35,685 nucleotides of DNA from a bacterium (GTDB taxonomy: Bacteria; UBP14; UBA6098): positions 1 through 35,685 of the forward strand of contig QNEE01000003.1 of the NCBI GenBank assembly GCA_003645085.1, read 5' to 3'. The position numbers were made by a program, and so were the translations under genes. Positions 12,529 through 33,724 of the stretch are shown here, in pieces; within the stretch, counting starts at the first letter, position 1, and each line of letters starts with the position of its first letter. Below the pieces are notes generated by a model. It saw nothing but the letters and a program-made list of their open reading frames with translations, was not told the DNA's origin and did not search any database.

Positions 12529-13578
12529 CTACACCTCCGTATTCAAATATTCTCTGAAAAGGTCAGCCCTATGAGTATCCATAATAACCCGGTTACCTTC
12601 TCCTGTAATCACCTTCAGATGTGCCGGTTGTCCCACTACAAAAAGCTCCGTAGCGGACATAACATCTATAGTGTCGTTCAGGATGCCTTCGGCGGCACCC
12701 AATCTAAGGGCGTTGGCAAGCGCATAGCCCTCCTGGCAGGCTATCATCCGGGCGTGAGTAAGAACCCCTATTCCTCTTAATATCCTATCCTCTATCTGAT
12801 AACGAGCCTGCGTCATAAGTGAATCCCGTGCTTCGTATTCTTTCTCTATCAGTCCTTCTATCATATTTTGCGCCGATGTAAGTATCTCTTCCTCGTCGAT
12901 TCCAAGGGTATGCGCGGTCTGTATCACAAAGAGATGCCCATCGGAACTCATTGCTTCGTCGGCAACAGACCTTAAAACGGACCCGGTTTTTAATAGGCTC
13001 TCCCTCAGATTTCTAAAGCCGTTAGAGAAAATCACTCCCGGTATATGCACCAGGAACCTGAGCATCAAGCCGGTTCCGCATTCTGCGGGTTTCGCCGTAA
13101 GGAAACCGTAACGGTCGGAATAGGCGAAAGGTAAACATTGCTGGAGTTCCTCCTCGATATTTCGGGCATTGCGATACGCTGTTTCTATGTTACTACCGGC
13201 AATTGCGAAACGGAAACGGAGGTAATCGGTGGTATTCAGACAAAGCCAGCTTGCCTCGTTTTCGGTTAAAAACAACCCGGTTCCGCGAGAGCGTTTCAAT
13301 AACTCCGACGGTGCGCTCATCCGCTCCGTCAAGTATTTACGTTCAGCGCCGTCTAAAGCGTCGGTTTCCCAGAAACGGTAGTCGGAAAAAAGCTCTCCGG
13401 TTGCATCGACAAACTGGCGGCGTGTTTTCTTAAGGTCGTCGACCTTGAGTCTGTCTGGAAACGGACTCCCGACCAGATTGCGGATATACAAGGCCTCGGA
13501 GGCAATAACGACCTCGAAATTATCTCCGCCCGTTGAAATCCAGTCGGGCAATCTCGGTGGATAGTTTTTTTCTATCAA
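12529..13578 (-). CDS. mcsB: McsB-like ATP:guanido phosphotransferase family protein with degenerate catalytic motifs
   Basis: Overall similarity to McsB (RNL..PFP, GFLT..P...GTG, TLG.DEEEI, EDR..R..G.L..AR, QPAHL, RA) directly after mcsA; the NEEDH and TxCP motifs are altered. Confidence 0.8.
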   Translation of the reverse strand: MIEKNYPPRLPDWISTGGDNFEVVIASEALYIRNLVGSPFPDRLKVDDLKKTRRQFVDATGELFSDYRFWETDALDGAERKYLTERMSAPSELLKRSRGTGLFLTENEASWLCLNTTDYLRFRFAIAGSNIETAYRNARNIEEELQQCLPFAYSDRYGFLTAKPAECGTGLMLRFLVHIPGVIFSNGFRNLRESLLKTGSVLRSVADEAMSSDGHLFVIQTAHTLGIDEEEILTSAQNMIEGLIEKEYEARDSLMTQARYQIEDRILRGIGVLTHARMIACQEGYALANALRLGAAEGILNDTIDVMSATELFVVGQPAHLKVITGEGNRVIMDTHRADLFREYLNTEV

Positions 13579-14042
13579 TTATTATCCTTCTCGATTCGCC
13601 TAATCTCGTCGCGCAGCTCGGCCGCTTTCTCGAAATCCTCCGCTTCGACCGCTCCGAACAATTTCCACTTAAGTTGCGCTATATCGAACTCGCGCTCCTT
13701 ACCGGGGCCTCTTCCGCGATGAAAACTGGTTGAATGAAGCCCTTTGAGTATGTCGGCTAGTTGCTTATCGAACGCCGAATAACACACCGGGCAACCAAGA
13801 AGTCCCGTTTTAAGAAACTGCGAGAAGCCGAGTCTACATTCCGGACAAACCGGGTTAGCCTTTTCGAACCCCAATTCCAGAAGTTTACGTGTCTTTTTTC
13901 GGCTCATCCGGGATTGTTCTTTGAAACCAGCTGTCCGTGCGCATTCCACACAAAGATATCTGACCACTCTTTCTCCGTCGACCATAATAACGCAGCGCAC
14001 TTCTGCAGGGTTTTTCTTACATGCCTGACACTTCTTTTCCAT
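13575..14042 (-). CDS. mcsA: McsA family protein (4x CxxC + UVR domain)
   Basis: CQAC, CVEC, CPEC, LGCPVCY, H.GR.P and AVEAEDFEKAAELRDEIR; ATG at 14042 with RBS GGAG. Confidence 0.88.
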   Translation of the reverse strand: MEKKCQACKKNPAEVRCVIMVDGERVVRYLCVECARTAGFKEQSRMSRKKTRKLLELGFEKANPVCPECRLGFSQFLKTGLLGCPVCYSAFDKQLADILKGLHSTSFHRGRGPGKEREFDIAQLKWKLFGAVEAEDFEKAAELRDEIRRIEKDNN

Positions 14043-14069
14043 AGTTCTCCCTAATATCTGCAAATCGAG

Positions 14070-14753
14070 TTAACCGCCGGTGATATCCTTTATCCCGCCG
14101 CTTTCGAGTAGGAAAACCCTATCCGCTTTCGATGCGAGTTTTCGATTGTGCGTCGCGAGAACGACCGCCAGCCCGTTTTCTTTCGCGAGAGAAAACAGAA
14201 GTTCCGTAAGGTGTTCCGCGCTTTTCATATCCAGATTGCCTGTCGGTTCGTCGGCGAGCAGAACCGACGGGTTACATATTAGCGCACGAGCGAGAGCCAC
14301 TCTTTGTTGCTCCCCTCCGGACAGGGTATTCGGTAAATGGTCCGAACGGTCGATAAGATTCACTTTCGAAAGAAGTTCCTCAGCCTGAACCAAAGCCTTA
14401 CTTTCCGGTATTCCCGCAAGTCTGGCCGGAATAGCGACATTCTCGAGCGCGCTGAATTCGGGGAGCAAATGATGAAATTGAAAAACAAAACCAATCTCGC
14501 TACCACGCAATTTTGCACGCTGCGATTCAGTAAGCATCGACGTCTCCCTGCCGTCGAATAACACATTTCCTTTGTTTGGTGTATCCAGAAGGCCCAGAAG
14601 GTGAAGCAATGTCGATTTCCCGACCCCCGATTCTCCTGTAACAGCTACAATTTGGCCTCGCCCAACAGATATCGAAACACCATCCAGAACCGAAAGCCAG
14701 CGGCTTTCTCCTTCAGGATACCCCTTTTTGATATTTACAGCTTCCAGTATCAA
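14070..14753 (-). CDS. lolD: LolD-like ABC transporter ATP-binding protein
   Basis: GESGVGKSTLLH, IGFVFQFHHLLPEFSALENV, LSGGEQQRVALARAL, LLADEPTGNLD. Confidence 0.85.
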   Translation of the reverse strand: MILEAVNIKKGYPEGESRWLSVLDGVSISVGRGQIVAVTGESGVGKSTLLHLLGLLDTPNKGNVLFDGRETSMLTESQRAKLRGSEIGFVFQFHHLLPEFSALENVAIPARLAGIPESKALVQAEELLSKVNLIDRSDHLPNTLSGGEQQRVALARALICNPSVLLADEPTGNLDMKSAEHLTELLFSLAKENGLAVVLATHNRKLASKADRVFLLESGGIKDITGG

Positions 14754-14761
14754 ATCTTATA

Positions 14762-14790
14762 ATTATATAGAATTAAAATCCGTTTGGCAA
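14762..14790 (-). promoter_or_regulatory. Putative sigma70 promoter of the lolD-mcsA operon
   Basis: TTGCCA-17 bp-TATAAT, ending 8 nt before the TTG start. Confidence 0.6.
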
Positions 14791-14933
14791 GAATCAAATT
14801 GAAAAGAATATCTTCGAAAAAATAGTCCCATAAAGAATTATTTTAAAACACCGTATTCCGCGGATTCAATCGAAGCAACAGAAATTTCCGAAATGCCCGA
14901 CCTTTACGGTCTCCCTACGTATTCTCTCACGTC

Positions 14934-15033
14934 GCTGGCGCGAGGGTGGTCTTCGGGATATTTGTGGGGAATCCGTGCTTCCGATATATAGTTTCAATAG
15001 ACCTTGTGAGGAACTCGCACGGAGCGTGCCAGC
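14934..15033 (+). repeat. 100-bp structured element, copy 1 (REPIN/MITE-like or ncRNA)
   Basis: Reverse complement of 33468-33567 with 4 mismatches; terminal IR GCTGGCGCG/CGTGCCAGC; internal TCCGTGC/GCACGGA stem and a cTTCGg hairpin. Confidence 0.9.
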
Positions 15034-15152
15034 GACCGAGAGACCTAAAAAAACCCATAGCAAATAGCTTGTGACTGAAGGAAATCCCAAGATAATCGAA
15101 TGGAGCGAGGATACCGGTTGGAACAACTGGGCATTCGTAACTGCTACCGCGA

Positions 15153-16259
15153 CTATTCGACTAATAATAACCGTCTTGTCGAACGCCGACCGTCAGCAAA
15201 GAGCGTGAAAAGATACATCCCTGTCGGGAGTTTCCGGGCAAAATCGTCTCTGCCGTCCCATATTATATTATAATCACCACAGACTAACCGCTCGGGTTCG
15301 GCGTGCTTTACAACACGACCGCTCAGATTATAAATATTCCAGCTAACATACCGCTCGCGGCCCATAATTTCGAAAGGAACGGTAACGCGTGAATTAAACG
15401 GATTCGGTCTCGGCAGTCCTATCGAGAAAAATTCCGGATTAAAATCCCGCTTTTCTTCTATCCCGAAACCCGGATAACCACCCCCATAATATGTTTGCAC
15501 GATATACCAGTCATAACCGGAGAGGTTTATTGAATTCCATCGTATAGCTATCGCCAAATCGCTTAGAGGGAATCCGGGCAATATATTTAGCGGCCATTCA
15601 TCGGTTTCTAACAAAGAAGCGTCGGCAAAAGCCACAATATCAGGGTAAAGCATCGAACTTCCGAACGGAACGCCCTGAGCCAGCGCGAATGTCGTATCTT
15701 GATGGATAGAGTTCTCGTATAATGTCCAATAAGCCGGTATATCCGCGTCTGTAAACCTTTGTGAAGTCGTCTCGACACCGGTTGCAAATTCCAATACCGG
15801 GTTATCGTTTACCCCCACCCGGGGGTCTATATAGAGTAAAAAACCGACAGAATGCGAATCCGGGGAATCGTTATAAGCCAAAAACTCTATATCACAAAAG
15901 GCATCTAGAGACTCCTCGGGCATTAAATAGAATTTCTCCCAGATTCGAATCGGGTCGCGAATCCACTGGATTGACATAAAAAAATCCTCGACAACGCGCC
16001 CGGTATCCAGAAGAGTGAAGGAGGTGCCCAGACCGGGACGGTTAGAAAGGGTAACACCGTCTATATGCGCGATAAAATGTGCGCCGGTTACCTCTGTCGG
16101 GAATCCATCGATATAGGGAGTTCCGTCCGGTTTCCCGATACCAAAACGTCCTTCTACATCGTCCATAACTACTTTAACCCATCCGTTATCGATTTCGATA
16201 AGTTCGGCGGGAACAGTCAGCACAAGGAAAATCAATGTGATTATAACAATTCTAAACAC
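15153..16259 (-). CDS. Secreted protein with C-terminal T9SS type-A/FlgD-Ig-like sorting domain
   Basis: Signal peptide; C-terminal GIEE...PRPNPFN...IYNLSGRVVK...WDGRDD...LPTGMY; GTG start with RBS AAGGA. Confidence 0.8.
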   Translation of the reverse strand: MFRIVIITLIFLVLTVPAELIEIDNGWVKVVMDDVEGRFGIGKPDGTPYIDGFPTEVTGAHFIAHIDGVTLSNRPGLGTSFTLLDTGRVVEDFFMSIQWIRDPIRIWEKFYLMPEESLDAFCDIEFLAYNDSPDSHSVGFLLYIDPRVGVNDNPVLEFATGVETTSQRFTDADIPAYWTLYENSIHQDTTFALAQGVPFGSSMLYPDIVAFADASLLETDEWPLNILPGFPLSDLAIAIRWNSINLSGYDWYIVQTYYGGGYPGFGIEEKRDFNPEFFSIGLPRPNPFNSRVTVPFEIMGRERYVSWNIYNLSGRVVKHAEPERLVCGDYNIIWDGRDDFARKLPTGMYLFTLFADGRRSTRRLLLVE

Positions 16260-16288
16260 CGTTATCCTTTAACCGGTTAAACAATGGT

Positions 16289-16316
16289 AAAATATAAAAC
16301 GTTTATTATGTGTCAA
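16289..16316 (-). promoter_or_regulatory. Putative sigma70 promoter
   Basis: TTGACA-16 bp-TATTTT. Confidence 0.45.
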
Positions 16317-16323
16317 TCGGTTT

Positions 16324-17526
16324 TTACCCGTTTTTCAAGCGGAGGACTACTCTGTTAATGATTACGCGCGCGAGTTCGTTTTTCGAAACCAGAGGGATAT
16401 TCTCTTCTTCCTCGGCAGTAATTAGGACTCCCGAATTGGTCTCCGCGGCGAAACCCGTGCCCTTATCTTTCGGGTTATTGACGAAAATCATATCGAGGTT
16501 TTTTGCTGCCAGTTTTTTTCGCGCGTTTTCCACCTCGTTTTCTGTCTCGACAGCGAATCCAACCAACAGCTTATTCCCCTTATTTTGTCCCAGACTAAAA
16601 AGTATATCCTCTGTCGGTTTAAGCTCTATAGCCAGGGCTTCGCGTCCGGATTTCTTAAGCTTACCTTCGTGCTTATCGACAGTCCAATCCGCCACCGCTG
16701 CGGCCATAATTATTATATCCGCGTCCTCGAAATGAGTTTTAACTGCTTCGCTCATCTCCGCCGCTGAGGTAACCGGTATCGAATATACAGCATCGGGAGG
16801 CTCCAGTCCGGTTTGCCCGTATATAAGAATAACTTGTGCATCCATACTCGAAGCAACTTCGGCTAACGCGAACCCCATTTTTCCCGTGGATGGATTCGAC
16901 AGAAAACGGACGTCGTCGATATATTCTCGTGTAGGCCCGGCGGTTACGACTACTTTCTTTCCAGATAAAGGTCCCGGGATAGCAAGTATCTCCTCGATAG
17001 TCCGGTAGATTTCGTCTATTTCTGCCAACCTTCCTTCACCGCTATCGCCGCTGGCAAGTTCGCCCACTCCCGGCCCCACGAACCTCACACCATGCTTACG
17101 CAAAGCCTTGATATTAGCCTGAACGGAAGCATCGTTCCACATACGGTTGTTCATCGCCGGTGCGATAACCACCGGGACGTCCATTGCGAGATAACTCGTG
17201 GAAAGTAGGTCGTCGGCAATTCCAGACGCAGCTTTCCCGATAAAATTCGCTGTCGCCGGCGCAACGACAAACAGGTCAGCCCAATCGGAAAGGTTTATAT
17301 GACTCATCGGGCTTTCGCGTTTATCGGGAAACATCTCTACATAAACTGCGTTTCCGGTCAATGTTTCGAACAACGTCGGCCGAACCAGTTCTGTCGCATG
17401 CTCGGTCATAATCGCACGGACTTTTGCGCCGCTTTTGACGAGTATCCTTACGAGTTCGCAGGCCTTATATATTGCCACCGAAGCGGTAACGCCCAAAACT
17501 ACATGTTTGCCGGTTAACTTACTCAT
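16324..17526 (-). CDS. coaBC: Bifunctional phosphopantothenoylcysteine decarboxylase / phosphopantothenate-cysteine ligase
   Basis: APATAN, PAMNNRMW, TAGPTRE.IDDVRFLSNPSTGKMG, AAAVAD, VGFAVET; likely start is the ATG at 17526 (MSKLTGK). Confidence 0.95.
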   Translation of the reverse strand: MSKLTGKHVVLGVTASVAIYKACELVRILVKSGAKVRAIMTEHATELVRPTLFETLTGNAVYVEMFPDKRESPMSHINLSDWADLFVVAPATANFIGKAASGIADDLLSTSYLAMDVPVVIAPAMNNRMWNDASVQANIKALRKHGVRFVGPGVGELASGDSGEGRLAEIDEIYRTIEEILAIPGPLSGKKVVVTAGPTREYIDDVRFLSNPSTGKMGFALAEVASSMDAQVILIYGQTGLEPPDAVYSIPVTSAAEMSEAVKTHFEDADIIIMAAAVADWTVDKHEGKLKKSGREALAIELKPTEDILFSLGQNKGNKLLVGFAVETENEVENARKKLAAKNLDMIFVNNPKDKGTGFAAETNSGVLITAEEEENIPLVSKNELARVIINRVVLRLKNG

Positions 17527-17528
17527 TT

Positions 17529-18032
17529 TTATACATCTTTCCGGTCTTCGAAATCCTCCAGCTCGCGTAGTTTCTGGCATCGAATACAGGCATCGGGCAA
17601 AATACCGTCCTTAAGATAACGATGGAACATCCGCAGCCATTCTGGTTTTTTATTCTCGGCATCGACGAAATGCACGAAGGCGGCGAACCTCGCGGTCGTT
17701 TCAGGGCCTATAGCATGCTCGAGGAGGCAGGCTTCTTTGTCCGCTATTCCGGACGGCACGCCGAGTATATCGCATAAGAACTCGTTAAAAAGGCCGTGTC
17801 GTAAAGCTATGGTTTTCGCTATTTCCCGCCCTTTTTCTGTAAGTCTAACATCGCCGTATGGTTCATGGGTAACCAATCCGATTTCCGTAAGTTTGCCGAC
17901 AATCTGCGTTACGGATGGACGCGAAACACCCATCAACCGCGCGATATCGCTAATCCGCGCACGTCTGCCGCCATCGAGCAAGTTCCCGATGATTTCGAGA
18001 TAATCCTCGAGGTTTGTTGACAGGCGATTCAT
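17529..18032 (-). CDS. DtxR/MntR family metal-dependent transcriptional regulator
   Basis: LEDYLEII, ARISDIA...GVSRPSVT, LTEKGREIA, RH and EACLLEH motifs. Confidence 0.9.
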   Translation of the reverse strand: MNRLSTNLEDYLEIIGNLLDGGRRARISDIARLMGVSRPSVTQIVGKLTEIGLVTHEPYGDVRLTEKGREIAKTIALRHGLFNEFLCDILGVPSGIADKEACLLEHAIGPETTARFAAFVHFVDAENKKPEWLRMFHRYLKDGILPDACIRCQKLRELEDFEDRKDV

Positions 18033-18039
18033 AGGTATT

Positions 18040-18068
18040 AATTTAAGCATTTAACGCCACGATGTCAA
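18040..18068 (-). promoter_or_regulatory. Putative sigma70 promoter (leaderless) of the DtxR-coaBC operon
   Basis: TTGACA-17 bp-TAAATT, then 7 nt to the ATG; no SD sequence. Confidence 0.6.
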
Positions 18069-18161
18069 ATAGATTGAGAATTTTCTCGCGGAAATTTGGG
18101 GATTGCGAGTTCACTGATTAGCACAGATTAAAGCCGTTACCGCACCATTATCTATTACCTC

Positions 18162-18190
18162 TTGCAAACCGAAATCTGGTTAATTATCTT
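18162..18190 (+). promoter_or_regulatory. Putative sigma70 promoter
   Basis: TTGCAA-17 bp-TATCTT. Confidence 0.45.
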
Positions 18191-18227
18191 TATCTATGAA
18201 TAAATCCTGCAAAATAGACGAATTATA

Positions 18228-18343
18228 TGTCATTGCGAGAACGTAGCGATAAAGCAACCTCGATAAATTAACCAGACAATAAGATTAAGTTGTCGCGCTA
18301 CAACCGATTGGGGTTTATCCAAAGACCCTTCCGGACAATGACA
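18228..18343. repeat. GTCATTGCGAG-type palindromic element, copy 2 (degenerate)
   Basis: TGTCATTGCGAG...AGCGA...GCAAC...ACCAGACAATAA...GTTG...CAATGACA; shares ACCAGACAATAA with 9225-9372. Confidence 0.65.
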
Positions 18344-18392
18344 GGAAACCCCGATTTTTCGGGATACGCTATCTCCGAATGAAAGGAGTATT

Positions 18393-18944
18393 ATGAATAG
18401 GACTGAAGCATTAGAACTAGTCAAATCGAACGTTAGTAAAGAAAACCTGATAAAACATATGCTTGCCACCGAGGCCGCGATGAAGGCTCTCGCAGAACGT
18501 CTCGGAGGCGACGTCGAAAAATGGGGCATGGCCGGGCTGTTGCACGACTTAGATTACGACCAAACCGAGCACGATTTCCCGAAGCATGGCCTTCTATCGG
18601 CCGAAATACTCGAAAGAAAAGGGGTCGACACGGAGATAGTCCGCGCTGTAAAAGCCCATCCGGCGCACGAGGGTTTTCTACCGGAGTCGCCTATGGATTG
18701 GGCTCTCTATTCGGTAGACAGCCTTACCGGCCTGATTATCGCCGCGGCATTAATGCACCCGGAGAAAAAACTGAAAGCCATTAATACCGACTTCGTTATG
18801 CGACGTTTCAAGGAAAAAAGGTTCGCGGCAGGCGCAAATCGCGACCAGATAAAGAAATGCTCCAAACTCGGCCTCGAATTAGAGGAATTCGTCGCCATAA
18901 CCCTCGAGGCGATGCAGTCCATTAGCGAATCCCTGGGATTATAA
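18393..18944 (+). CDS. HDIG/HD domain phosphohydrolase-like protein
   Basis: LIKHML, GLLHDLDY, H, AH, D.LTGLI, RFAAGANR; RBS AAGGAG. Confidence 0.88.
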   Translation: MNRTEALELVKSNVSKENLIKHMLATEAAMKALAERLGGDVEKWGMAGLLHDLDYDQTEHDFPKHGLLSAEILERKGVDTEIVRAVKAHPAHEGFLPESPMDWALYSVDSLTGLIIAAALMHPEKKLKAINTDFVMRRFKEKRFAAGANRDQIKKCSKLGLELEEFVAITLEAMQSISESLGL

Positions 18945-18946
18945 AC

Positions 18947-20215
18947 ATGAACGAAAACGGGGAAACTAAACACGCCGGCCGTATTTTGGCCTGGGGAATG
19001 TATGACTTCGCGAATACGATATATTCTATGAACGTCGTTTCTATCTATTTCCCCCTGTTGGTCGTTCTCAATCTGGGCTATCCCGACATATATGCCGGCG
19101 GCGCGAATAGTCTTTCTATGCTGATAGTTGCGCTTTCCGCACCGTTTCTCGGCCAATTGACAGATTCTACCGGCCGGAGAATGCCTTCGTTAATAGCCGC
19201 TACTATTATATGTTGCCTTTTTACGGCGGGAATCGGTTTCGCCGCCGGAGGGAAACTCCCCATATTAAGCGTGCTCGCTTTTTTTGTGGTCGCCAATGTC
19301 GGTTTTCAACTCGGTCTCGTATTCTATAACTCCCTCCTCCCTATTGTCGCCCCGAAAGGCCTTATTGGCCGAGTAAGCGGGATAGGTGTCGGACTCGGTT
19401 ATCTAGGCGCGATTGCCGGAATGATACTCGTTATGCCATTCAACGAGGGCGCGATATTCGGAATCGATATCCCGTGGGTTCACGCCGGAGGCCGTTCTGC
19501 GACGTTTTTGCCTACCGCGACGCTCTTTCTGCTGTTTTCGCTCCCCACTTTTATTGTCATCCGTGAGAGGAAACCCGCAACCCGAATCGAGCCTCGAGGC
19601 AGGCCGCTGCAAAGGATTATCGAAACCCTACGCGACTCGAAGAAATACCCCGGCATAAGGAGATTCCTTGTTGGCAAATTTCTATTTCAGGAAGGTATCG
19701 AAACGGCGATTATTTTTATGGCGGTATATTCGGAAAAGGCTATGGGAATGCCCGATTCCGCGAAAATACCGTTTTTTATTGTAGCGACTTTAGGTGCCGC
19801 TATCGGGTCGAACGTTTTCGGGCACCTCGTAGACAGGATAGGTCCCGGAAAAACGTTGAATATCGTCCTTGTCGGCTGGATTATTGCTCTTTTATTATTG
19901 CTCCCTATAACCGGTAGATTGCCGTTTTTCGGATTGGGAATCGTAATAGGTGCGCTTCTCGGCGGCGTTTGGACTGCCTCGAGGCCGCTCCTGCTGGAGC
20001 TTTCGCCTATCGAGGCTGTCGGCAGGTATTTTGGGCTTTATTCTCTATCCGGTAAGGCCGCCGCGATAACCGGGCCTTTAATATGGGGCGCGATAGTATG
20101 GGTTTTGAAGCCGTTGGGTGATTTTATAGCATACCGAAGCGCCGTAATCGTTTTGATAATCCTAATAGGTGCTGGTTGGCTCGTCATCAGGCCGCTATGG
20201 TCGGGAACAAAATAA
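18947..20215 (+). CDS. MFS transporter (UMF1/BtlA-like family)
   Basis: AWGMYDFANT, FYNSLLP, GRVSG.G.GLGYLG, G.YFGLY...GK.AAI.GP; about 12 TM segments. Confidence 0.88.
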   Translation: MNENGETKHAGRILAWGMYDFANTIYSMNVVSIYFPLLVVLNLGYPDIYAGGANSLSMLIVALSAPFLGQLTDSTGRRMPSLIAATIICCLFTAGIGFAAGGKLPILSVLAFFVVANVGFQLGLVFYNSLLPIVAPKGLIGRVSGIGVGLGYLGAIAGMILVMPFNEGAIFGIDIPWVHAGGRSATFLPTATLFLLFSLPTFIVIRERKPATRIEPRGRPLQRIIETLRDSKKYPGIRRFLVGKFLFQEGIETAIIFMAVYSEKAMGMPDSAKIPFFIVATLGAAIGSNVFGHLVDRIGPGKTLNIVLVGWIIALLLLLPITGRLPFFGLGIVIGALLGGVWTASRPLLLELSPIEAVGRYFGLYSLSGKAAAITGPLIWGAIVWVLKPLGDFIAYRSAVIVLIILIGAGWLVIRPLWSGTK

Positions 20216-20247
20216 AAACAGGCGCCGTTATATCAAAAGCGCCTGTT
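20214..20247 (-). terminator. Probable terminator between convergent genes
   Basis: AACAGGCGC...GCGCCTGTT stem with a U-tract on the minus strand. Confidence 0.55.
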
Positions 20248-20289
20248 CCCCTCCATCCTGCATTACACAGGTATCATTCGTTCGATGAA

Positions 20290-20814
20290 CTACTTGATAA
20301 GGACCATTTTGCCGTTAAAGCTCTTATTTCCAAACGTTATCCTGTAGAGATATGTCCCGCTGGGGAGGTTTCCGGACTCGAAATCGAGAACGTGTTTACC
20401 GGGGACGACATCTTTGTTTTCGCCGTAGACCATTCTTCCGCAAACATCATAAAAACGGGCTTTAAGCAGGCCGTTCTGCGGGATTTCTATGGAAAATCGA
20501 GTTATAGAGTTAAACGGATTCGGCGAGGGCAGGCCTACGCTGAACTCTCGGGGAACCTTGGCGTTGTCGTCCGGCTGCTCTTCGATAGCCACAATCGCGC
20601 CCATTATCGAACCGAGAAATCCCGCGCAATTGTCGTAGGCCCCGCCGGAACTCATACAGATTACCGCCTGTCCGATAGACGCCACATTGTCGTATGCACC
20701 TCCAGAGGTTCTCCCCCCTCCGTTGTCCTGCACATTATTTTTCTCCTCTACGGTGGCAAATAGGCACGATGCTGAAATTAAAACTAACATCATTATAAAA
20801 ACCAGAGCCTTCAT
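20290..20814 (-). CDS. Small secreted protein with T9SS type-A-like C-terminal domain
   Basis: Signal peptide; two SGGAYDN repeats with IGQ and AGF; PSPNPFN...YDVCGR...LPSGTYLY...KMVLIK; RBS GGAGG. Confidence 0.8.
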   Translation of the reverse strand: MKALVFIMMLVLISASCLFATVEEKNNVQDNGGGRTSGGAYDNVASIGQAVICMSSGGAYDNCAGFLGSIMGAIVAIEEQPDDNAKVPREFSVGLPSPNPFNSITRFSIEIPQNGLLKARFYDVCGRMVYGENKDVVPGKHVLDFESGNLPSGTYLYRITFGNKSFNGKMVLIK

Positions 20815-20982
20815 ATCGGCCTCCTATCGGTTCAGACTATTTTTTCACGCATAAAATATAATTATTCGATATGTTTATACAAGGACTTTTTATAACCGCA
20901 AATATCGACGTAAAATTGGGTCTTTTTTACTTTAGTGGGTCCTTCTGCCGTAGTATCCCGCAAGAATCCCTATTTATATGTA

Positions 20983-22998
20983 TCAATTACCTGGGTGAAG
21001 TTCCATAAGAAGGCTGTTGTTGCCGACAATCCAACCGTAATTCGAACCCATCAGGAATATATCGTTCAGGGTTTCTTCGGTGAATCCTTCGCTCTGGCGA
21101 TACCAGCTCTCGCCGCCATCGACGGTGTGCAATACATATCCGAATTTGCCGACTACCCAACCGACCTCGCTATTCTGGAAAGCAACAGATTTGAAAACGG
21201 ATTCGCAATAGGCTGGCATATCGAGCTGGGTCCAGTCCGCGCCGCCATCGGTCGTTTTAAGTATCGTGCCCATACTTCCGCAAGCGTAACCCGTATTGGA
21301 ATCGACCATATCTATATCCATTAAAGATTGTTCGGTTCCGCTCGGTAGGACATCCCACGTCGTCCCGCCATTAGTCGTCTTAAGAATAGTCCCGTGCTGA
21401 CCGACCACAAATGCTTTTCCAGTGTCGAAAACATCGAGGCCGAACAACTCCGCCGAGACACCCGCTTCTTGAGGCGACCAGGTTAATCCACCGTCCTCGG
21501 TTCGCAGGATAAGTCCTTCGTTGCCTATCGCCCAGCCGGTATTCTCATCTGCTAACTCGACTTTATTGAGTCTATATCCGTCGAGGCTATCGACCGCTGT
21601 CCAAAGTTCCCCACCGTTTTCAGTGTAAAGGATAGTCGCGAAAGTATCGACGGGGAGTTGAACGGAGAAACCGACTACCCAGCCTAGATTTTCATCTGCG
21701 AAATAAACGTCCTGGAACGTTTTATCCGTGTTAGCATCCTGATGAATCCACATCGCGCCGCCATCGGTAGTATGCGCGATACGGCCGGATTTACCTACCA
21801 CCCAACCCTCGCTCGAACTTACGAAATGAACCCCATACAGCGAAATACCGAGACCGTAACTTCGGAAACTCCAGGTTTCTCCTCCGTCGTGAGTAACTTT
21901 GATAGCTCCCGTCCCACGCGAAACATCGTCGCCGACAACCCACCCTTCGGTTTCATCGAAGAAACCGATATCTGTTATATCCCCGGTTATATCGACATCG
22001 ACAAGGCTCCATACGCTGCCCCCGTCGGTAGTCTTCGCTACTGTGCCCCCCGTCCCGATAGCCCATCCTATAGTGGCATCGGTAAACTCTATTTCCATTA
22101 AATCGCGTCCCGAACCGACATTAGCGAGACTCGCGGTAGATATCGAGGACTCTGCCACCGAAATAGTATATACGTAGCCTCCGTCACCAACCATAATCCC
22201 GTTCGTTTCGTCGAAGAAATACATATCGGCGAAATGCCCGACAAAAGGATACATTTCCCAGCTACCGCTATCTCCCCCATCCATCGAGCGGAAGAATAAT
22301 AGTGTATCGCCGCTGCCGACGGTGTCGCCAAGCAGGTAAATCAGGTCCTCGGTCGGGGCGTATCCGCCGTAGAATGTAATCTGGTCCTGAGTAACATAGA
22401 GAGTCGTATCATAGAACCAGGTAGTTACTCCGGAATCTACAACCGCGAGGGAATCGAAAAACTCACCGATGTAAAGGTCGATATATTCCCACGAATCGCC
22501 GCCGTTTTCGGAGCGAAGAAGAACCCCTTCGTTGCCGCAAATAAATAGAGGATTATCCTCTCCGGTCGCAGGGTATATTATGTCGTATAAATCCCCATCT
22601 CTGACGCCTGCTGGAAAAACATCCGACCAGTTTTCGCCGTTATCGGAAGATATATAAAGCATACCGCGTTCGCCGACCATAATACCCTTGCTAGAGGTAA
22701 AATAGAAATCGGTCGCTTTACGGCCTGTCTCGGGATTAAGGGTTTTGGTAACCCAGCCATGGCCGTCGTCCTCTGTGATGTATAGATGTTCGTTGTCTGC
22801 GCCGACAATCGCTTTTTCGTGTGCGAGAGGCCAAACCGCGCCGGGGTTTTCCAGTTCTTCGGTAGTAACGACGCTCCAATAACTGCCGTCCTGTAAAGCC
22901 TCCTCTTCTTCCTCTTTCGAACAACCGGAGAAAACGAACAACGAAGCCATAATTAATGTAAATAGTGCGACAGATTTAGTTCCGAGAATGCGACGCAT
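20983..22998 (-). CDS. Ycf48/BNR-repeat (beta-propeller) lipoprotein
   Basis: Lipobox FSGC; many 'GW.VG..G.I..T.DGG..W' repeats; RBS GGAGG. Confidence 0.88.
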   Translation of the reverse strand: MRRILGTKSVALFTLIMASLFVFSGCSKEEEEEALQDGSYWSVVTTEELENPGAVWPLAHEKAIVGADNEHLYITEDDGHGWVTKTLNPETGRKATDFYFTSSKGIMVGERGMLYISSDNGENWSDVFPAGVRDGDLYDIIYPATGEDNPLFICGNEGVLLRSENGGDSWEYIDLYIGEFFDSLAVVDSGVTTWFYDTTLYVTQDQITFYGGYAPTEDLIYLLGDTVGSGDTLLFFRSMDGGDSGSWEMYPFVGHFADMYFFDETNGIMVGDGGYVYTISVAESSISTASLANVGSGRDLMEIEFTDATIGWAIGTGGTVAKTTDGGSVWSLVDVDITGDITDIGFFDETEGWVVGDDVSRGTGAIKVTHDGGETWSFRSYGLGISLYGVHFVSSSEGWVVGKSGRIAHTTDGGAMWIHQDANTDKTFQDVYFADENLGWVVGFSVQLPVDTFATILYTENGGELWTAVDSLDGYRLNKVELADENTGWAIGNEGLILRTEDGGLTWSPQEAGVSAELFGLDVFDTGKAFVVGQHGTILKTTNGGTTWDVLPSGTEQSLMDIDMVDSNTGYACGSMGTILKTTDGGADWTQLDMPAYCESVFKSVAFQNSEVGWVVGKFGYVLHTVDGGESWYRQSEGFTEETLNDIFLMGSNYGWIVGNNSLLMELHPGN

Positions 22999-23048
22999 CG
23001 CGCCTCCTTATAAGTATTAAACGCTGTAGTTTTATAATAAATCTAATG

Positions 23049-23077
23049 AATATAAATCTGTTATATATTCGAGTCAA
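23049..23077 (-). promoter_or_regulatory. Putative sigma70 promoter
   Basis: TTGACT-17 bp-TATATT. Confidence 0.55.
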
Positions 23078-23136
23078 CCTTTTTTTCGTGATAATGAAGT
23101 TTAGATTAAATTCTGAAAACGGTCAAACCTTCTTTT

Positions 23137-23298
23137 ATGAACGGAGCCGCACGCGTTTTCGATTTGGGTTGCGGTTTGCCAAACTACAATCAATCGGAAA
23201 GCGGCGAGGAAGCCGATTACAAAGCTATCCTGAACGATTGGTTGATGGTAGGAAGAGATATTAAAAGCGCTACAAATCGATTCGCCGATGAGCAATAG
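23137..23298 (+). CDS. Small protein upstream of DUF2335, not in the ORF track; 5' end possibly frameshifted or truncated
   Basis: Hand translation (PSF)MNGAARVFDLGCGLPNYNQSESGEEADYKAILNDWLMVGRDIKSATNRFADEQ*; overlaps the DUF2335 start by 11 nt. Confidence 0.6.
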   Translation: MNGAARVFDLGCGLPNYNQSESGEEADYKAILNDWLMVGRDIKSATNRFADEQ

Positions 23299-23719
23299 AA
23301 GCAAAAAGAGCGATTCAAACCACCCGGCTAAGTTTAACAAGAAGCAAGGAGCTTATCTTCAGGCTTTATCGTCTTATAGCGGACCAATCCCTCATCCGGA
23401 TATTCTCGCTCACTACGATGAAATCTATCAGGGAGCCGCTAAAATAATAATAGATAGAGCCGAGAAACAGTTAGACCATAGAGTGGATATGGAGAAAAGC
23501 GTCGTTAAGTCGAATATCCTCAACGAGAAGCTCGGGATAATCTCGGCATTTCTGATAGCGCTTGCGTTTGGCTATATCGCTTATAGATGTGCGATAGCCG
23601 GACATGACTGGCCAGCTTCGATAATTGGTAAAACGGACGTTGTGGGCTTGGTTGCGACTTTTATCAATGGCGGGGGTCGAAATATCAAAGAGCTGTCGCA
23701 AAAAAGAAATGCCGAATAG
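23288..23719 (+). CDS. DUF2335 family membrane protein
   Basis: YSGPIPHPDILAHYD...GAAKII...AEKQ..HR motif followed by two TM helices. Confidence 0.85.
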   Translation: MSNRSKKSDSNHPAKFNKKQGAYLQALSSYSGPIPHPDILAHYDEIYQGAAKIIIDRAEKQLDHRVDMEKSVVKSNILNEKLGIISAFLIALAFGYIAYRCAIAGHDWPASIIGKTDVVGLVATFINGGGRNIKELSQKRNAE

Positions 23720-23740
23720 AAGCCCCGATAGGGGCTTTTC
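23720..23740 (+). terminator. Rho-independent terminator
   Basis: AAGCCCC-gata-GGGGCTTTTC directly after the stop codon. Confidence 0.7.
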
Positions 23741-23914
23741 AATTTCGAGGAGAAAGAAACCGCTTGACCTGGTTTGGGTTTTTGGGTAGGTTGGTTTCGA
23801 GATAGGTTGTTCATTAAAAACGCGAGGATTTTAGGTCGAAGTTCTCGGTTTGGTCTCGAAAAAATTGGATTTGGGGGCAAAACCGGGATTTAGACGGGAG
23901 TGCCGGGCTTTTAG

Positions 23915-24235
23915 ATGGCGTTCCCGAACACGGTGGAGTTCGCGAACTGGCTGCGCTCCGGGCTATATTACCCGGACGCGGATTCCCATGACGCACCAGT
24001 TACCGTAGGGGTGGCGAACATCGCGCAGGAGAACGCGACCAAGGTCTGGAACGAGGCGGTCAAGAATTTGCGTAATTTGCTGGTGAGGTTGCGCATCTCG
24101 CTTCCGATGCTCACGCTGGGGACGATTAGGTGCTGGACACGTTGAATTTGCGCGGCGATGTGCCTCTGCGCGACGCCGTTCAACGAGGCCGAGGAGGCGG
24201 GATTACCGACCGAGGAAGAAATTACCGTGAAGTAA
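23915..24235 (+). pseudogene. GC-rich orphan ORF with an internal in-frame TGA (probable gene remnant)
   Basis: Strong GC3 bias; after TGA 24143-24145 the frame continues ICAAMCLCATPFNEAEEAGLPTEEEITVK to TAA 24235; followed by a terminator. Confidence 0.4.
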
Positions 24236-24260
24236 CGCAGAATGTATAATGTAGAATTAG

Positions 24261-24282
24261 GGCGCGAGGACGCGCCTTTTTT
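24261..24282 (+). terminator. Rho-independent terminator
   Basis: GGCGCG-agga-CGCGCC-TTTTTT. Confidence 0.7.
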
Positions 24283-24288
24283 AATTTG

Positions 24289-24371
24289 CTCTCACCCTCG
24301 CCCCCTCTCTCGCCGAATGGGAAAGGAGGCTCCAAGTCCTTCTCTGCAGGGAGAATGGTTTAAGATGATGG
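24289..24371. repeat. Degenerate CCTCACCC/CCCTCTC-type palindromic element
   Basis: CTCACCC..GCCCCCTCTC...GGGAAAGGAG...CCTTCTC...GGGAGA..GG....GATGA layout. Confidence 0.5.
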
Positions 24372-24480
24372 CTAATCCATCGCACTTTGAAGGGCACGGT
24401 TCATTTTTCGGGTGCCCGCAGTCGCCCGTTTTTATCTCTGAACCCTCGAGCCCTTGAATCTTTTCTTTTTTATTCTTCTC

Positions 24481-24509
24481 TTGTAAATCCGGCTGAACAT
24501 AATTATAAT
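24481..24509 (+). promoter_or_regulatory. Putative sigma70 promoter for nuclease-deoC-rlmH
   Basis: TTGTAA-17 bp-TATAAT, 11 nt before the GTG at 24521. Confidence 0.55.
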
Positions 24510-24520
24510 TGGTCTTAACC

Positions 24521-25039
24521 GTGAAAAAACTAATAACAACCCTGATGATTTCGACGTTGTTTTTCAGCGCTTGCGACCGGGGAGCGGCGTCTCCCCCGCC
24601 ATCTAATAACAGTACCGACGAGACGATTACCTACCGCGTCATCGATGTCTATGACGGCGATACTATCGAGCTGGACGACGGCCAGACGGTGCGGCTAGTC
24701 GGTATAAATACGCCGGAGATGAACTATGGCGGAACACCCGAGCCGTGCGCGCAGGAGGCCACGGATTATACGACTGCGGTATCCCTATATAAGGATTGCT
24801 ACCTCGTTTATAATACCTCGGTCGGCGACTCGATAGACCCATACGACCGGACGCTGGCGTTTGTGCATATTTTGCCGGATAGCTTTTGTCTGAATATCGA
24901 GATAGTCCGTGCGGGCTGGAGCGAGGACTGGGATTATTATCCGGTCAGAAGCGATTACGAGGTTCTTTTCGAGGAGGCCGAGGCCGAGGCTATCGCCGCC
25001 GGTAGAGGTATATGGGACCCCGGCGAAAACTGCGACTGA
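24521..25039 (+). CDS. Thermonuclease (SNase) family lipoprotein
   Basis: Lipobox FSAC; VYDGDTI, VRLVGINTPE, D.YDRTLA, AE.EA....RGIW. Confidence 0.88.
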   Translation: MKKLITTLMISTLFFSACDRGAASPPPSNNSTDETITYRVIDVYDGDTIELDDGQTVRLVGINTPEMNYGGTPEPCAQEATDYTTAVSLYKDCYLVYNTSVGDSIDPYDRTLAFVHILPDSFCLNIEIVRAGWSEDWDYYPVRSDYEVLFEEAEAEAIAAGRGIWDPGENCD

Positions 25040-25049
25040 AGGAAATAAA

Positions 25050-25829
25050 ATGAACGACGAACGAATAAGAGCTATTCTCGACGAGGTTGCCGCCGAATTC
25101 GGGATGCCGAATGCGCCGGATGTCGATAATGATTGGGTTTTGACCGAAAGCGCCCGGCGGGTCCTTGTCGAAAACGTGAGCGAACCGCATTGTATCGCGC
25201 CCCTTATCGACCATACTCTACTAAAACCGAACGCGACCGAGAACGACATCCGCAGGATTTGCGAGGAAGCGATAGAATATCGTTTCGCAAGCGTCTGCGT
25301 AAACCCGTGCTGGGTATTATTCGCGGCGGAATCGCTCGGAAATTCGAATTCGATGGTTTGCACCGTCGTCGGTTTTCCGCTCGGAGCCAATACGACAGAA
25401 ATCAAGGCCGAGGAGGCTATCCGCGCGGTCGAGGACGGCGCGGACGAGCTGGATATGGTGATGAACATCGGCGCGGCAAAATCGGCCGAATGGGAGACCG
25501 TCTATGCCGATATCGCCAGCGTTGTCGATGCTGCTTTTCCCGTTCCTGTCAAGGTTATTCTCGAAACGGCGATTCTCATCGACGAGGAGATAATTCGCGC
25601 CTGCGCCATATCCGCAAGCGCGGGAGCGGCTTATGTTAAGACCAGCACCGGTTTCTCAAAAGGCGGCGCTACTGTCGAAGCGGTCGAGATTATGTCGAAA
25701 ACGGTCGGCGATAAACTCGGCGTCAAGGCGTCCGGCGGAATCGGCGATTTCGAGAAGGCTATGTCTATGATAAAGGCCGGAGCGACGAGAATCGGCGCGA
25801 GCCGGTCGTTAACAATAATAGGACTATGA
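25050..25829 (+). CDS. deoC: Deoxyribose-phosphate aldolase with N-terminal extension
   Basis: IDHTLLKP, VVGFPLG, ELDMV, VKVILET, VKTSTGF, VKASGGI, RIGAS; ATG at 25050 with RBS AAGGA. Confidence 0.95.
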   Translation: MNDERIRAILDEVAAEFGMPNAPDVDNDWVLTESARRVLVENVSEPHCIAPLIDHTLLKPNATENDIRRICEEAIEYRFASVCVNPCWVLFAAESLGNSNSMVCTVVGFPLGANTTEIKAEEAIRAVEDGADELDMVMNIGAAKSAEWETVYADIASVVDAAFPVPVKVILETAILIDEEIIRACAISASAGAAYVKTSTGFSKGGATVEAVEIMSKTVGDKLGVKASGGIGDFEKAMSMIKAGATRIGASRSLTIIGL

Positions 25830-26281
25830 AAATACGAGTTATACACGTTGGAAAAATATCTCCATTGTTAAAAGAAGCTATCGAACTCTACGAAAAACGG
25901 CTATCGAATTACGAAACGCTCGAAACAATCGAAGTCCGTCAGGTCAAGAAATTACCGCAGGATAAGACAGTCAAGAAAGAGGGCGCGAATATACTCGCGA
26001 TTCTCGACGATGAGGAGACGGTAGTCGCTCTGACCGAAGAGGGCCGCAGATTCAGTTCCATAGGTTTTGCGAAATGGCTCGCCGACGCCCGTATTGTGGG
26101 GCAGCAGGTATCTTTCGTTATCGGTGGCGCATTCGGACTGAGTAACGATGTTAAACTCCGGTCGGACCTCGCTCTCTCTATTTCTTCGATGACAACGCAG
26201 CACGATATCGCATTGCTGGTCTTGATGGAGCAACTCTACCGAGCATCGACTATACTGCGCGGCGAGGAATACCATAAATAG
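25826..26281 (+). CDS. rlmH: 23S rRNA (pseudouridine1915-N3)-methyltransferase
   Basis: MKI...VGK, FVIGGAFGL, S.MT..H, EQLYRA.TIL.G..YHK. Confidence 0.93.
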   Translation: MKIRVIHVGKISPLLKEAIELYEKRLSNYETLETIEVRQVKKLPQDKTVKKEGANILAILDDEETVVALTEEGRRFSSIGFAKWLADARIVGQQVSFVIGGAFGLSNDVKLRSDLALSISSMTTQHDIALLVLMEQLYRASTILRGEEYHK

Positions 26282-26337
26282 TTTTGAAGTTTCGCCGGAT
26301 TATTTCCGGCCGTAACCATATCGTTTAAGGAAAATCA

Positions 26338-26364
26338 GCCGGGGGGTCTTTACGACCCGTCGGC
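26338..26364. repeat. Intergenic hairpin (REP-like or terminator)
   Basis: GCCGGGGGGTC-tttac-GACCCGTCGGC. Confidence 0.4.
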
Positions 26365-26391
26365 AAAAGCTGTTTGTGAAAGGAAATTACC

Positions 26392-29808: not shown

Positions 29809-29843
29809 TCGAGGTTATAGTCTGGGAAAATAGATACACATAT

Positions 29844-29870
29844 AAAAACGGGAATTCCCTTTCGGTTTTT
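29844..29870. terminator. Possible weak bidirectional terminator
   Basis: Imperfect hairpin AAAAACGGGAA...TTCGGTTTTT between convergent genes. Confidence 0.3.
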
Positions 29871-30177
29871 AACCTACAACTCTCATCGGTCGCGGACCGA
29901 GCCCTGGGCTTTCCGGGTCTTTGTATTTCACCGCAAAATAGTAGATTACGCTGCCGAAAGGCACGAGCATAATCACCAGAATCCAGACCACCTGCTCGTT
30001 GGGATTATCGAAACGCTTTCGCGCACAATCGATAATCATAAGGATTTTCAGAATAAAAAGTGCGATACCGAGAGCGACCGCTGTCAACCAGACCATAATG
30101 TAGAATATCCAGAAAATTCCGCAGAATCCCGCGGCTATACCGGGGGCAATATCGGAATTTAAGAAAACCGGGGACAT
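29869..30177 (-). CDS. PLDc N-terminal domain membrane protein
   Basis: MIIDC...F......WILVI....FGS.IYYF motif; ATG at 30177 with RBS GGAGGA. Confidence 0.8.
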   Translation of the reverse strand: MSPVFLNSDIAPGIAAGFCGIFWIFYIMVWLTAVALGIALFILKILMIIDCARKRFDNPNEQVVWILVIMLVPFGSVIYYFAVKYKDPESPGLGPRPMRVVG

Positions 30178-30200
30178 TATTCCTCCATAGATTTCGACCA

Positions 30201-30614
30201 TTAAAAAGCGGTAATCTCGTATATCCAGTTTATAGCAAGAACAGCAATTAAACCCCATCTTTGGGCTTTTTTCCTTTTGTCGGTTATCGCCCATTTTTTA
30301 AGCGGTTTCCCGATGGAATATCCTATGGTCGCGACCAAACTCCATATAACGAACGCGAAGCCGCCTATTACGAACAGCGGATTTGCTTTTACCGCCTCGA
30401 TTATCTGGAATCGAGACAGCGCGACCAGAGCGGAACCGCTTCCGCAACCGACGCATCTTATCCCAAGAAGACTCCGGGAGGGACAAACAAGTATCTCTTC
30501 CGGAAGACGCGGAAGATACCATCTCGCGGCAGCGACCGCCGCAACTCCGGCAATCGCCCAGACACCGTGAATAGGATTAACGAAAGACCGTTCTTTCGCA
30601 TCAATATCCGCCAT
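30201..30614 (-). CDS. DUF2752 family membrane protein
   Basis: CP....GI.C.GCG...A..AL......EA...NP motif. Confidence 0.85.
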   Translation of the reverse strand: MADIDAKERSFVNPIHGVWAIAGVAAVAAARWYLPRLPEEILVCPSRSLLGIRCVGCGSGSALVALSRFQIIEAVKANPLFVIGGFAFVIWSLVATIGYSIGKPLKKWAITDKRKKAQRWGLIAVLAINWIYEITAF

Positions 30615-33316: not shown

Positions 33317-33467
33317 TTTATTCCTTTCTAGGCGGTCGATAACTAGGGTTGTTATTCTTTAGTGAACAGTAACTTAAAATAAATTTTTTTCTAACGCAAG
33401 CTTGTTTTGGTGTAAAAATAAATAATAGCTATGTATCGGAGTATTTAGGTTCTCCTGCGTAAAACGG

Positions 33468-33567
33468 GCTGGCACGCTCCGTGCGAGTTCCTCATAATGT
33501 ATATTGAAACTATATATCGGAAGCACGGATTCCCCACAAATATCCCAAAGACCACCCTCGCGCCAGC
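33468..33567 (-). repeat. 100-bp structured element, copy 2 (inverted relative to copy 1)
   Basis: 96/100 identity to the reverse complement of 14934-15033, counted by hand. Confidence 0.9.
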
Positions 33568-33724
33568 CCTTTATGTGGAGATGTTGAGTGAAAAATTGTC
33601 GAAGCGGTTCGACAGTTACCGAATATTAAGCGGTCTTCGGACTGGATTCTGGGGCTAGTATTGTGTGTATTGTTTCGGTTGTTGAATTATGTTTTTTAAG
33701 GTAACCGTTCTTTTCAGGTTAGGC

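Follow-up and report, generated by a model that had tools for sequence, protein, structure and literature searches.

A lineage-restricted family of asymmetric hairpin repeats, probably mobile, in an uncultured bacterial family

The 35,685-nt stretch of bacterial DNA analysed here (contig QNEE01000003.1 of assembly GCA_003645085.1; lineage UBP14; UBA6098), which we refer to as the window, contains two inverted copies of a structured element that belongs to a large repeat family. The original prediction, made from the letters of the window, offered two explanations: a non-coding RNA family, or a non-autonomous element resembling either REPINs, which are built from repetitive extragenic palindromic (REP) sequences, or miniature inverted-repeat transposable elements (MITEs). 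The second explanation fits better, as the copies are extragenic, randomly oriented, modular and nested, restricted to one lineage and built to a genome-specific consensus. The copies are also numerous, share a covarying structure and lack direct-repeat duplications at their ends. With a probability that we put at roughly 0.6, the family is a small, non-coding, lineage-specific, non-autonomous mobile element of the REP/REPIN kind. Its mobility is suggested by a 96% identical pair at unrelated sites, by the genome-specific consensus, and by presence and absence of copies between genera.

Copy number and conserved fold

The only inverted pair of at least 25 nt in the window lies at 14934-15033 and 33468-33567. 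The two sequences are 100 nt long and 96% complementary. The four differences between them, one in a G-rich region (UUCG in one copy, UUUG in the other) and three in the apical part of an inner hairpin, break none of the predicted pairs, as had been claimed, with the apical part described at the time as a large loop. Copy 1 spans 14931..15036 in the plus orientation of the top strand, comprising the core and three complementary flank bases per side, and copy 2 spans 33466..33569 in the minus orientation, comprising the core and two complementary flank bases per side. In copy 1, the outer stem P1 is formed by 14931..14942 (gtc-GCTGGCGCG) pairing with 15025..15036 (CGTGCCAGC-gac), an assignment that rests on covariation as well as on folding. 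A variable G-rich loop follows on the 5' side (14943..14971), and an inner hairpin, P3 (14972..15023), has two stems, of 7 and 4 bp, and an A/U-rich apical part, with 15014-15016 forming a 3-nt bulge. Both the outer stem and the TCCGTGC-TTCC/GGAA-GCACGGA hairpin that had been read from the sequence are present. With their flanks, the two copies fold more stably than dinucleotide shuffles on both strands, with z-scores of -4.2 and -3.1 for the top strand and -2.6 and -4.8 for the bottom strand. The pair has the highest identity of any pair in the genome (0.96, with the runner-up at 0.92) and is the youngest duplication of the family. A contig from another sample (run X2) links 14999 to 33501 on opposite strands, at a depth of 5.7 and with 45 letters that fit both sides; it is either an assembly chimera formed through the inverted copies or a reflection of an inverted 18.4-kb intervening segment in a related population.

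The window's own assembly, G000, is fragmented, with 2.67 Mb in 268 contigs and a completeness of 89.9%. A BLAST search of G000 with the 121-nt stretch around copy 1 gave 42 matches, almost all of which cover exactly query positions 12-111, and iterative nhmmer searches raised the number from 51 to 90 and then 112 matches, of which 79 are full length. Uniting the nhmmer matches with a scan for pairs of conserved end motifs spaced 40-260 nt apart gave at least 134 loci. The copies are diverged, with a median pairwise identity of 0.62 and a median nearest-neighbour identity of 0.86. By our own crude calls of open reading frames (ORFs), only 5 of the 112 nhmmer matches are overlapped over at least 50% of their length by an ORF of at least 200 aa. 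Loci are not enriched at contig ends (8 of 134, versus 5.4 expected). Nothing in the window matched an Rfam family at the gathering score, and the lone match at E ≤ 10 around copy 1 is unrelated (15.5 bits) and lies outside the element; a tRNA/tmRNA scan found none. With at least 134 loci, covariation and no Rfam match, the element is neither an isolated pair nor a member of a known Rfam family.

We aligned 69 full-length copies from G000 (alignment A1) and tested a structure of 27 named pairs. Paired cells make up 88.3% of the alignment at these positions, versus 32-41% when the partner is slid, and 11 of the 27 pairs change on both sides. The 180 compensated cells in A1 compare with 72 in shuffles, and none of 500 shuffles reached 180, where these controls ignore the kinship of the copies. 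The 11-bp outer stem (A1 columns 4-14 with 102-112) is 91.2% paired over the 69 copies; the unit has nine conserved outer-stem pairs, and two variable complementary pairs would derive from the insertion site. In the inner hairpin, compensatory changes occur at pairs 46-99, 47-98, 48-97, 53-89, 54-88 and 59-83; the 7-bp stem appears as UCCGUGC/GCACGGA, UUUUUGC/GCAAAAA, UCCUUGC/GCAAGGA or CUCGUGC/GCACGAG, and the 4-bp stem as GUCC/GGAC, GCCC/GGGC, GUUC/GAAC, GGUC/GACC or GCGC/GCGC. Several non-Watson-Crick features are also fixed: a G.U pair in the outer stem is found in 62 of the 69 copies and is A-U in the remaining seven, a G.A two pairs away from it is found in 42 of 69, and the inner hairpin holds a tandem G.A/A.G in one subfamily (type A) and G-C pairs instead in the other. 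Among 23 distinct copies from seven other genomes, changes on both sides affect 19 of the 27 pairs, and pairing holds in 90.9% of cells, versus 30-44% with the partner slid, figures that are favoured by the fitting of this second alignment to the covariance model. The outer stem covaries between genera as well, for example as GUUGG...CCAAC and GCAGG...CCUGC. Over 26 independent nearest-neighbour pairs of copies, unpaired columns differ at 21.8% and paired columns at 7.1%. The claim of selection for structure is therefore supported, by family-wide compensatory change and not by the argument from flanks on which it had been based. R1, the covariance model built from A1, scores copy 1 at 93.6 bits (C3:14929-15039) and copy 2 at 101.5 bits (C3:33462-33572).

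The 5'-side loop measures about 28 nt and has a G content of about 50% (51% over columns 15-44, 47% over columns 13-47). Over the 69 copies, this region is variable and has a mean minimum free energy of -3.2 kcal/mol, with a z-score of -0.28 versus shuffles. The imperfect cUUCGg hairpin that had been placed here, and the three-way junction that it would complete, are not features of the family: because the hairpin is not conserved, there is no conserved three-way junction, and the element is a long asymmetric hairpin. A G-quadruplex was considered for the loop and rejected, since 2 of 69 and 2 of 21 copies contain the canonical motif, no more than in shuffles. The suggested likeness of the element's end to GTAG-type REP hairpins was not borne out either, as GTAG occurs only in or next to the internal 3-nt bulge (18 of 69 copies in G000 and 12 of 23 copies in relatives) and never at an end.

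End-motif pairs define size classes of 48, about 70, about 100, about 150 and 167-255 nt. The smallest form, of 48 nt, consists of the outer stem and inner stem only, the 70-nt form is without the G-rich loop, and the 150-nt form carries a conserved insert of about 85 nt in its apex. At six places, a mini-element stands in place of the G-rich loop or two copies lie in tandem. Other repeats accompany the family. In its apex, the 255-nt copy on C73 contains an unrelated small element whose core is C/T-rich and whose inverted ends measure about 16 nt. Module X, a second repeat, is found at C94:9578-9640 and 33 other places in G000; its long form is about 62 nt, and it adjoins the 5' end of at least eight element copies at a fixed junction and is inverted inside the 150-nt forms. 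The 30-nt core of module X also lies inside many large ORFs, in the same sense and often about 110-120 nt before the stop, as if it encoded a portion of a C-terminal domain that the ORFs have in common. There is also a third small module, in which a GGGCTAT-like motif comes after a 5-bp hairpin; it is situated between the element and a divergent gene, 40-70 nt from the 5' end of about ten G000 copies (for example on C113, C93, C71 and C107). In two other genera, at about 1416-1697 of L144 (G004) and L132 (G002), the element is joined to about 90 nt ending in CCTTTAC-like repeats, and the resulting composite of about 200 nt is 86.6% identical between the two non-syntenic sites and likewise 86.6% identical to a second copy in G004.

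Distribution and gene context

R1 matches all eight genomes of the same taxonomic family (f1) and none of 33 genomes outside it; at E ≤ 1e-5 it matches seven of the eight f1 genomes, including G000, and none of 18 other genomes of the class. At E ≤ 0.001 and E ≤ 1e-5, respectively, thresholds that are approximate because the E-values of R1 are rough, the model finds 91 (of 92 candidates scored) and 107 copies in G000, 44 and 42 in G001, 43 and 39 in G006, 17 and 17 in G004, 11 and 4 in G003, 9 and 5 in G002, 8 and 7 in G007, and 1 and 0 in G005. By BLAST, relatives are seen in G001 only, the remaining genomes being visible only with the covariance model, and a scan of genome contigs with an exact pattern gave one further record, which corresponds to G001. 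The structure is conserved across at least five genera, and the copies of each genome share a consensus of their own. When 19 loci from other genera were examined, at least four syntenic intergenic regions were found to hold a copy in G000 too, so that these regions are occupied in two or three genera. The syntenic copies are not mutually closest, ranking 7 to 75 of 79, and in at least one case a site that holds a copy in G001 corresponds to a place without intergenic space in G000. Because the syntenic copies are not closest relatives and each genome has its own consensus, the shared occupancy indicates hot spots or turnover rather than inherited orthologous copies.

The orientation of the element relative to genes is close to random: among the 112 matches, both neighbours run opposite to the element in 33 cases and in the same direction in 25, the neighbours are divergent in 27 and convergent in 13, and a neighbour is missing in 14. 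The genes next to the window copies, which encode an ABC ATPase, a FlgD_ig-domain protein, an OmpA/TPR/PD40 protein and a DUF192 protein, are functionally unrelated. Scans within and beside the element gave no conserved promoter or terminator. An intrinsic terminator was rejected because TTTT occurs within 15 nt downstream of the element in only 8 of 79 copies and the scan showed no terminator at its 3' end. For outward promoters, no match in the A/T-rich apex of copy 1 reached the scan threshold, and copy 2 gave one 9-of-12 match on the bottom strand.

This setting bears on the possibility that the family is a multicopy functional RNA, with each copy transcribed alone or within a neighbouring mRNA and acting as a stability or processing module or as a protein-binding aptamer. 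Half of the copies would then be read antisense, given their random orientation in tandem contexts (25 versus 33), and they would serve neighbours of unrelated function with no conserved promoter or terminator of their own. The excess of divergent over convergent regions (27 versus 13) is the opposite of what a 3'-end element would give, there is no Rfam match, and nested and apically replaced variants are typical of mobile DNA. We consider this explanation improbable, even with what it accounts for well: an architecture conserved through compensatory changes in five or more genera, non-Watson-Crick features that are fixed on one strand only (the G.U, the G.A and the type A tandem G.A/A.G), stems that are three times more conserved than loops between close copies, and folds that surpass shuffles on both strands (z -2.6 to -4.8).

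Where the 5' side of the element faces a divergent gene, its distance to the gene start is 114-234 nt in 35 of 44 cases, and sigma-70-like promoters are found between the copies' 5' side and the divergent gene starts, so the copies sit just outside promoters. Copy 1 provides an example: the ABC ATPase gene (14070-14753, minus strand, with a Pfam ABC_tran match) is preceded by a sigma-70-like promoter at 14762..14790 on the minus strand (TTGCCA-17-TATAAT, 11 of 12), which lies outside the element, between copy 1 and the gene. Downstream of this gene, at 12529-14063 (minus strand), are genes of the McsB type (ATP:guanido phosphotransferase) and McsA type (UVR motif). This position just upstream of promoter regions would suit sites that act in the host at the level of DNA, such as REP-like sites of the bacterial interspersed mosaic element kind that bind nucleoid proteins or gyrase, or cruciforms, maintained by selection and spread by recombination or gene conversion. 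The syntenic regions with a copy in two or three genera would suit such sites too, and a genome-specific consensus is what concerted evolution is expected to produce. However, an element with a 3-nt bulge, a 28-nt loop on one side only and fixed G.A and G.U mismatches would make a poor cruciform, and these features point to a single-stranded form; a copy number that ranges from 1 to more than 100 within one family argues against a general chromosomal function, and a 96% identical pair lies at two unrelated sites. Host sites of this type are quite unlikely to explain the family.

Ends, insertion and a candidate mobiliser

Of the 77 copies that have 30-nt flanks, 72 carry a G immediately before the core, and this G pairs with the C that ends the core. 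Beyond this terminal G-C, the first flank pair is complementary in 70 of 77 copies (46.0 expected from base composition) and the second in 52 of 77 (32.6 expected), with both GC and CG found, while pairs 3 to 6 show complementarity at expectation. Flank duplex energies beyond 4 nt equal those of mismatched partners (p = 0.52). The flank duplexes of the window copies have energies of -11.5 kcal/mol, equalled or exceeded in stability by 11% of mismatched-partner controls, and -9.1 kcal/mol, equalled or exceeded by 28%. The strength of flank pairing is not linked to the youth of a copy (Spearman -0.005). Thus the self-complementary flanks that had been described can be read in the sequence, and two of their pairs are enriched family-wide; the longer flank stems are within chance, and the idea that long flanks, different in each copy yet self-complementary, are a sign of selection was not upheld. 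The statement that the flanks of the two copies are unrelated was confirmed: the best ungapped 22-mer match between their right flanks is 14 of 22, and flanks of unrelated copies reach up to 16.

The two variable flank pairs differ between the window copies (GTC/GAC versus GG/CC) and switch between GC and CG in other closely related copies. Because they differ between 96% identical copies and flip between close relatives, they would have been fixed when each copy inserted, and a short G/C palindrome as the target is the simplest explanation. Conservation in the left flank is limited to S-S-G, with no conserved tetra- or pentanucleotide, and a 12-nt flank motif that was examined as a possible repeat is not one. 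Direct repeats of 2-8 nt flanking the copies are at or below expectation (for k = 4, 0 of 77 versus 1.9 expected).

The lack of a direct target-site duplication at any length from 2 to 8 nt counts against a classical cut-and-paste MITE of a DDE transposase, in which the outer stem would serve as terminal inverted repeats and the parent insertion sequence would be missing from the assembly. The outer stem can indeed be read as imperfect terminal inverted repeats of 9-11 bp, the assembly is 89.9% complete, and DDE transposases in G000 are present as fragments only: DDE_Tnp_1 fragments lie at contig starts (C172:15-149 and C146:2-124), and rve gene fragments are found at C45:9934-10173 and C145:345-524, one of them with an in-frame TAG. 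As these fragments are at contig ends or broken, insertion sequences exist in G000 and are unassembled or decayed. Still, the internal stems covary, which a double-strand transposase does not require, and a search for an autonomous parent gave seven end pairs 1.0-3.9 kb apart, including chance 9-mers inside genes and the ends of neighbouring copies, with no transposase seen among the listed ORFs that they enclose (these ORFs were not scanned against a family library, so one is not formally excluded). On balance, we regard a DDE-type MITE as very unlikely. Integron attC-like recombination sites, which are folded bottom-strand hairpins with extrahelical bases, a variable apex and R''/R' boxes (AAC...GTT), share with the element an imperfect hairpin, bulged bases, a variable terminal structure and a structure more conserved than sequence, and can hardly be the explanation, given that the AAC/GTT core triplets of R boxes are absent from the conserved ends and the 134 loci occur one at a time among ordinary genes, in either orientation, and not at cassette ends.

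Under the REP/REPIN-like reading that we prefer, the copying mechanism, like any host role, is inferred. Copying would involve a folded single strand of the element, which would enter short G/C palindromes with no direct duplication of the target, and the insertion site would supply the two outer flank pairs. The mobile unit would consist of the outer stem, an optional G-rich loop of about 28 nt on the 5' side only, and the inner hairpin with its 3-nt bulge and a replaceable apical part, and copies would tend to land next to or inside other repeats, giving rise to mosaics.

The original prediction noted that the window holds no cognate transposase. A single intact candidate lies elsewhere, on contig C94, and its link to the element is weak. 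Searching G000 with Pfam Y1_Tnp identified one intact gene, C94:9024-9425, which encodes a 133-aa protein (49 bits); a second, weak match (C60:4615-4767, 37 bits, profile positions 41-97) is inside a 1648-aa open frame. IS110, TnpB and reverse transcriptase were not found in the 89.9%-complete assembly. The HUH motif and catalytic tyrosine of the Y1 protein align with those of IS200-type TnpA structures (2F4F, E 5.5e-6). Its best solved relatives are IS200-type TnpA proteins, with no structure of a REP-associated tyrosine transposase (RAYT) among the matches listed at E ≤ 1, and in the Atlas the protein falls with IS200-like clusters. The gene is single copy, with orthologues in seven of seven f1 genomes (49-58% identity) and 11 of 12 f4 genomes (33-39% identity), and the sequence neighbouring the orthologues is partly conserved; these comparisons show it to be vertically inherited within the lineage. 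In G000, a full element and module X begin 54 nt after the Y1 stop codon, with no copy on the other side of the gene; a RAYT/TnpA(Y1) gene flanked by copies had been proposed as something to look for, and this one has a copy on one side only. In G001 and G004, only weak element matches are seen, 0.8-0.9 kb from the Y1 orthologue. Just downstream of the orthologue in G001 (L118, 1955-2105) is a multibranched G+C-rich structure of -99.5 kcal/mol over 190 nt, which is single copy in G001 and not a repeat family, and the Y1 gene of G003 is followed by CCTTTTAC repeats resembling those of the 200-nt composite. It is possible, and we propose only tentatively, that this single-copy HUH transposase, IS200-like in sequence and RAYT-like in lifestyle, mobilises the family.

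Several observations weigh against the proposed mobile element and its mobiliser. The Y1 protein scores below the NCBIfam cut-offs for both families (36.6 versus 55 for IS200, and 22 versus 80 for RAYT, NF047646). The G000 gene has no element copy upstream, in the seven other f1 genomes no copy lies within 200 nt of the Y1 orthologue, and 11 of the 12 f4 genomes carry the orthologue with no R1 match. By a rough estimate (134 loci, about 2,085 crude ORFs), a copy would adjoin about one gene in eight by chance. No empty site or excision product was seen: contigs from four other DNA runs over 14000-33999, which are short and break inside repeats, have no skip joint at either copy. The family is also old and diverged, and its current activity is therefore unproven. 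Its orientation shows no bias relative to GC skew (62 of 112) or to gene strand (57 of 112), which in a fragmented assembly are only proxies for the direction of replication. Finally, the threefold greater conservation of stems than loops between close copies would also fit selection acting on each copy for a function in the host.

A partnership like that of REPINs and RAYTs may have arisen independently in this uncultured family with an element of different design, a single asymmetric hairpin that has fixed G.A and G.U pairs, a bulge and a G-rich loop. Selection would then keep each of more than 100 copies intact as folded single-stranded DNA or RNA that is bound by a domesticated IS200-type nuclease or by some other protein of the host. 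This proposal is speculative and we would not expect it to hold, but, if true, it would make the family a maintained host-element symbiosis and not decaying junk.

Relation to known systems

What is known of small structured repeats of the REP/REPIN type comes almost entirely from Proteobacteria and a small number of other cultured groups. Among the papers that our literature search listed, none connected such repeats with Zixibacteria or contained the element's end strings in a relevant context. The family described here provides an alignable set of sequences and a covariance model, with more than 100 diverged copies in a genome, occurrence in at least five genera of an uncultured lineage, and a distinct asymmetric architecture. 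This material is suited to asking whether such repeats are kept by per-copy selection and which enzyme copies them. Annotators should mask the family, including its 48-255-nt variants and companion modules, lest it be mistaken for riboswitches, small RNAs or regulatory sites.

Among recognised groups, IS200/IS605-derived non-autonomous elements (palindrome-associated transposable elements) resemble the family in having no target duplication and in conserving structure rather than inverted terminal sequence, and the only intact transposase-like gene that we found is of the IS200 TnpA type. IS200/IS605-type single-strand transposition shows an orientation bias relative to the direction of replication. 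Unlike these elements, the family has no such bias by our proxies and no fixed tetra- or pentanucleotide in its 5' flank, where only S-S-G is seen, and each element forms a single hairpin over its whole length instead of having one hairpin at the left end and another at the right. The ERIC, YPAL and Correia (NEMIS) MITEs of Proteobacteria are likewise intergenic imperfect palindromes of 100-170 nt with size variants arising from indels and about 100 or more copies per 2-3-Mb genome. They duplicate a TA target and have longer terminal inverted repeats, whereas our family has no direct duplication and conserved ends of only 9 bp. Compared with MITEs of DDE transposases in general, the ends are like terminal inverted repeats, but direct repeats of 2-8 nt do not exceed expectation.

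The closest comparison is with REPINs. PMC3116915 describes a REPIN as a pair of inverted REPs and a spacer that together fold into a hairpin of about 100 nt with frequent compensatory changes, and RAYTs as the presumed agents of its copying. According to PMC3733652, REPs are 20-40-nt stem-loops tagged with GTAG or CGTC that are often arranged as dimers and mosaics and in some families lie within short G/C palindromes; the same paper presents RAYT genes as single-copy, vertically inherited, and flanked by REPs or long inverted repeats. Like REPINs and REPs, the present family is extragenic and high-copy (134 loci here, hundreds in REPINs), forms a single-strand hairpin of about 100 nt with compensatory changes, occurs in clusters and mosaics, and is confined to one lineage, in which it persists. 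It shares the short G/C palindrome setting with some REP families, and the Y1 HUH gene, which is single copy, vertically inherited and accompanied by an element copy in G000, recalls the RAYT system. Unlike a REPIN, however, it does not consist of two short inverted REP hairpins, as its arms are not hairpins themselves, and it is strongly asymmetric, with the 28-nt G-rich loop on one side, the 3-nt bulge, and the fixed G.A and G.U. Unlike a REP, it has no GTAG or CGTC tag at its end, and its smallest form is a 48-nt hairpin rather than one of 20-40 nt. Unlike a RAYT, the Y1 protein is IS200-like and scores below the RAYT model, and copies do not lie on both sides of its gene, nor beside it in related genomes. 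Because the family departs from REPINs in unit size, end tag, two-REP symmetry, RAYT score and gene flanking, we describe it as working like a REPIN without classing it as a member. The family is new in design and known in its general kind.

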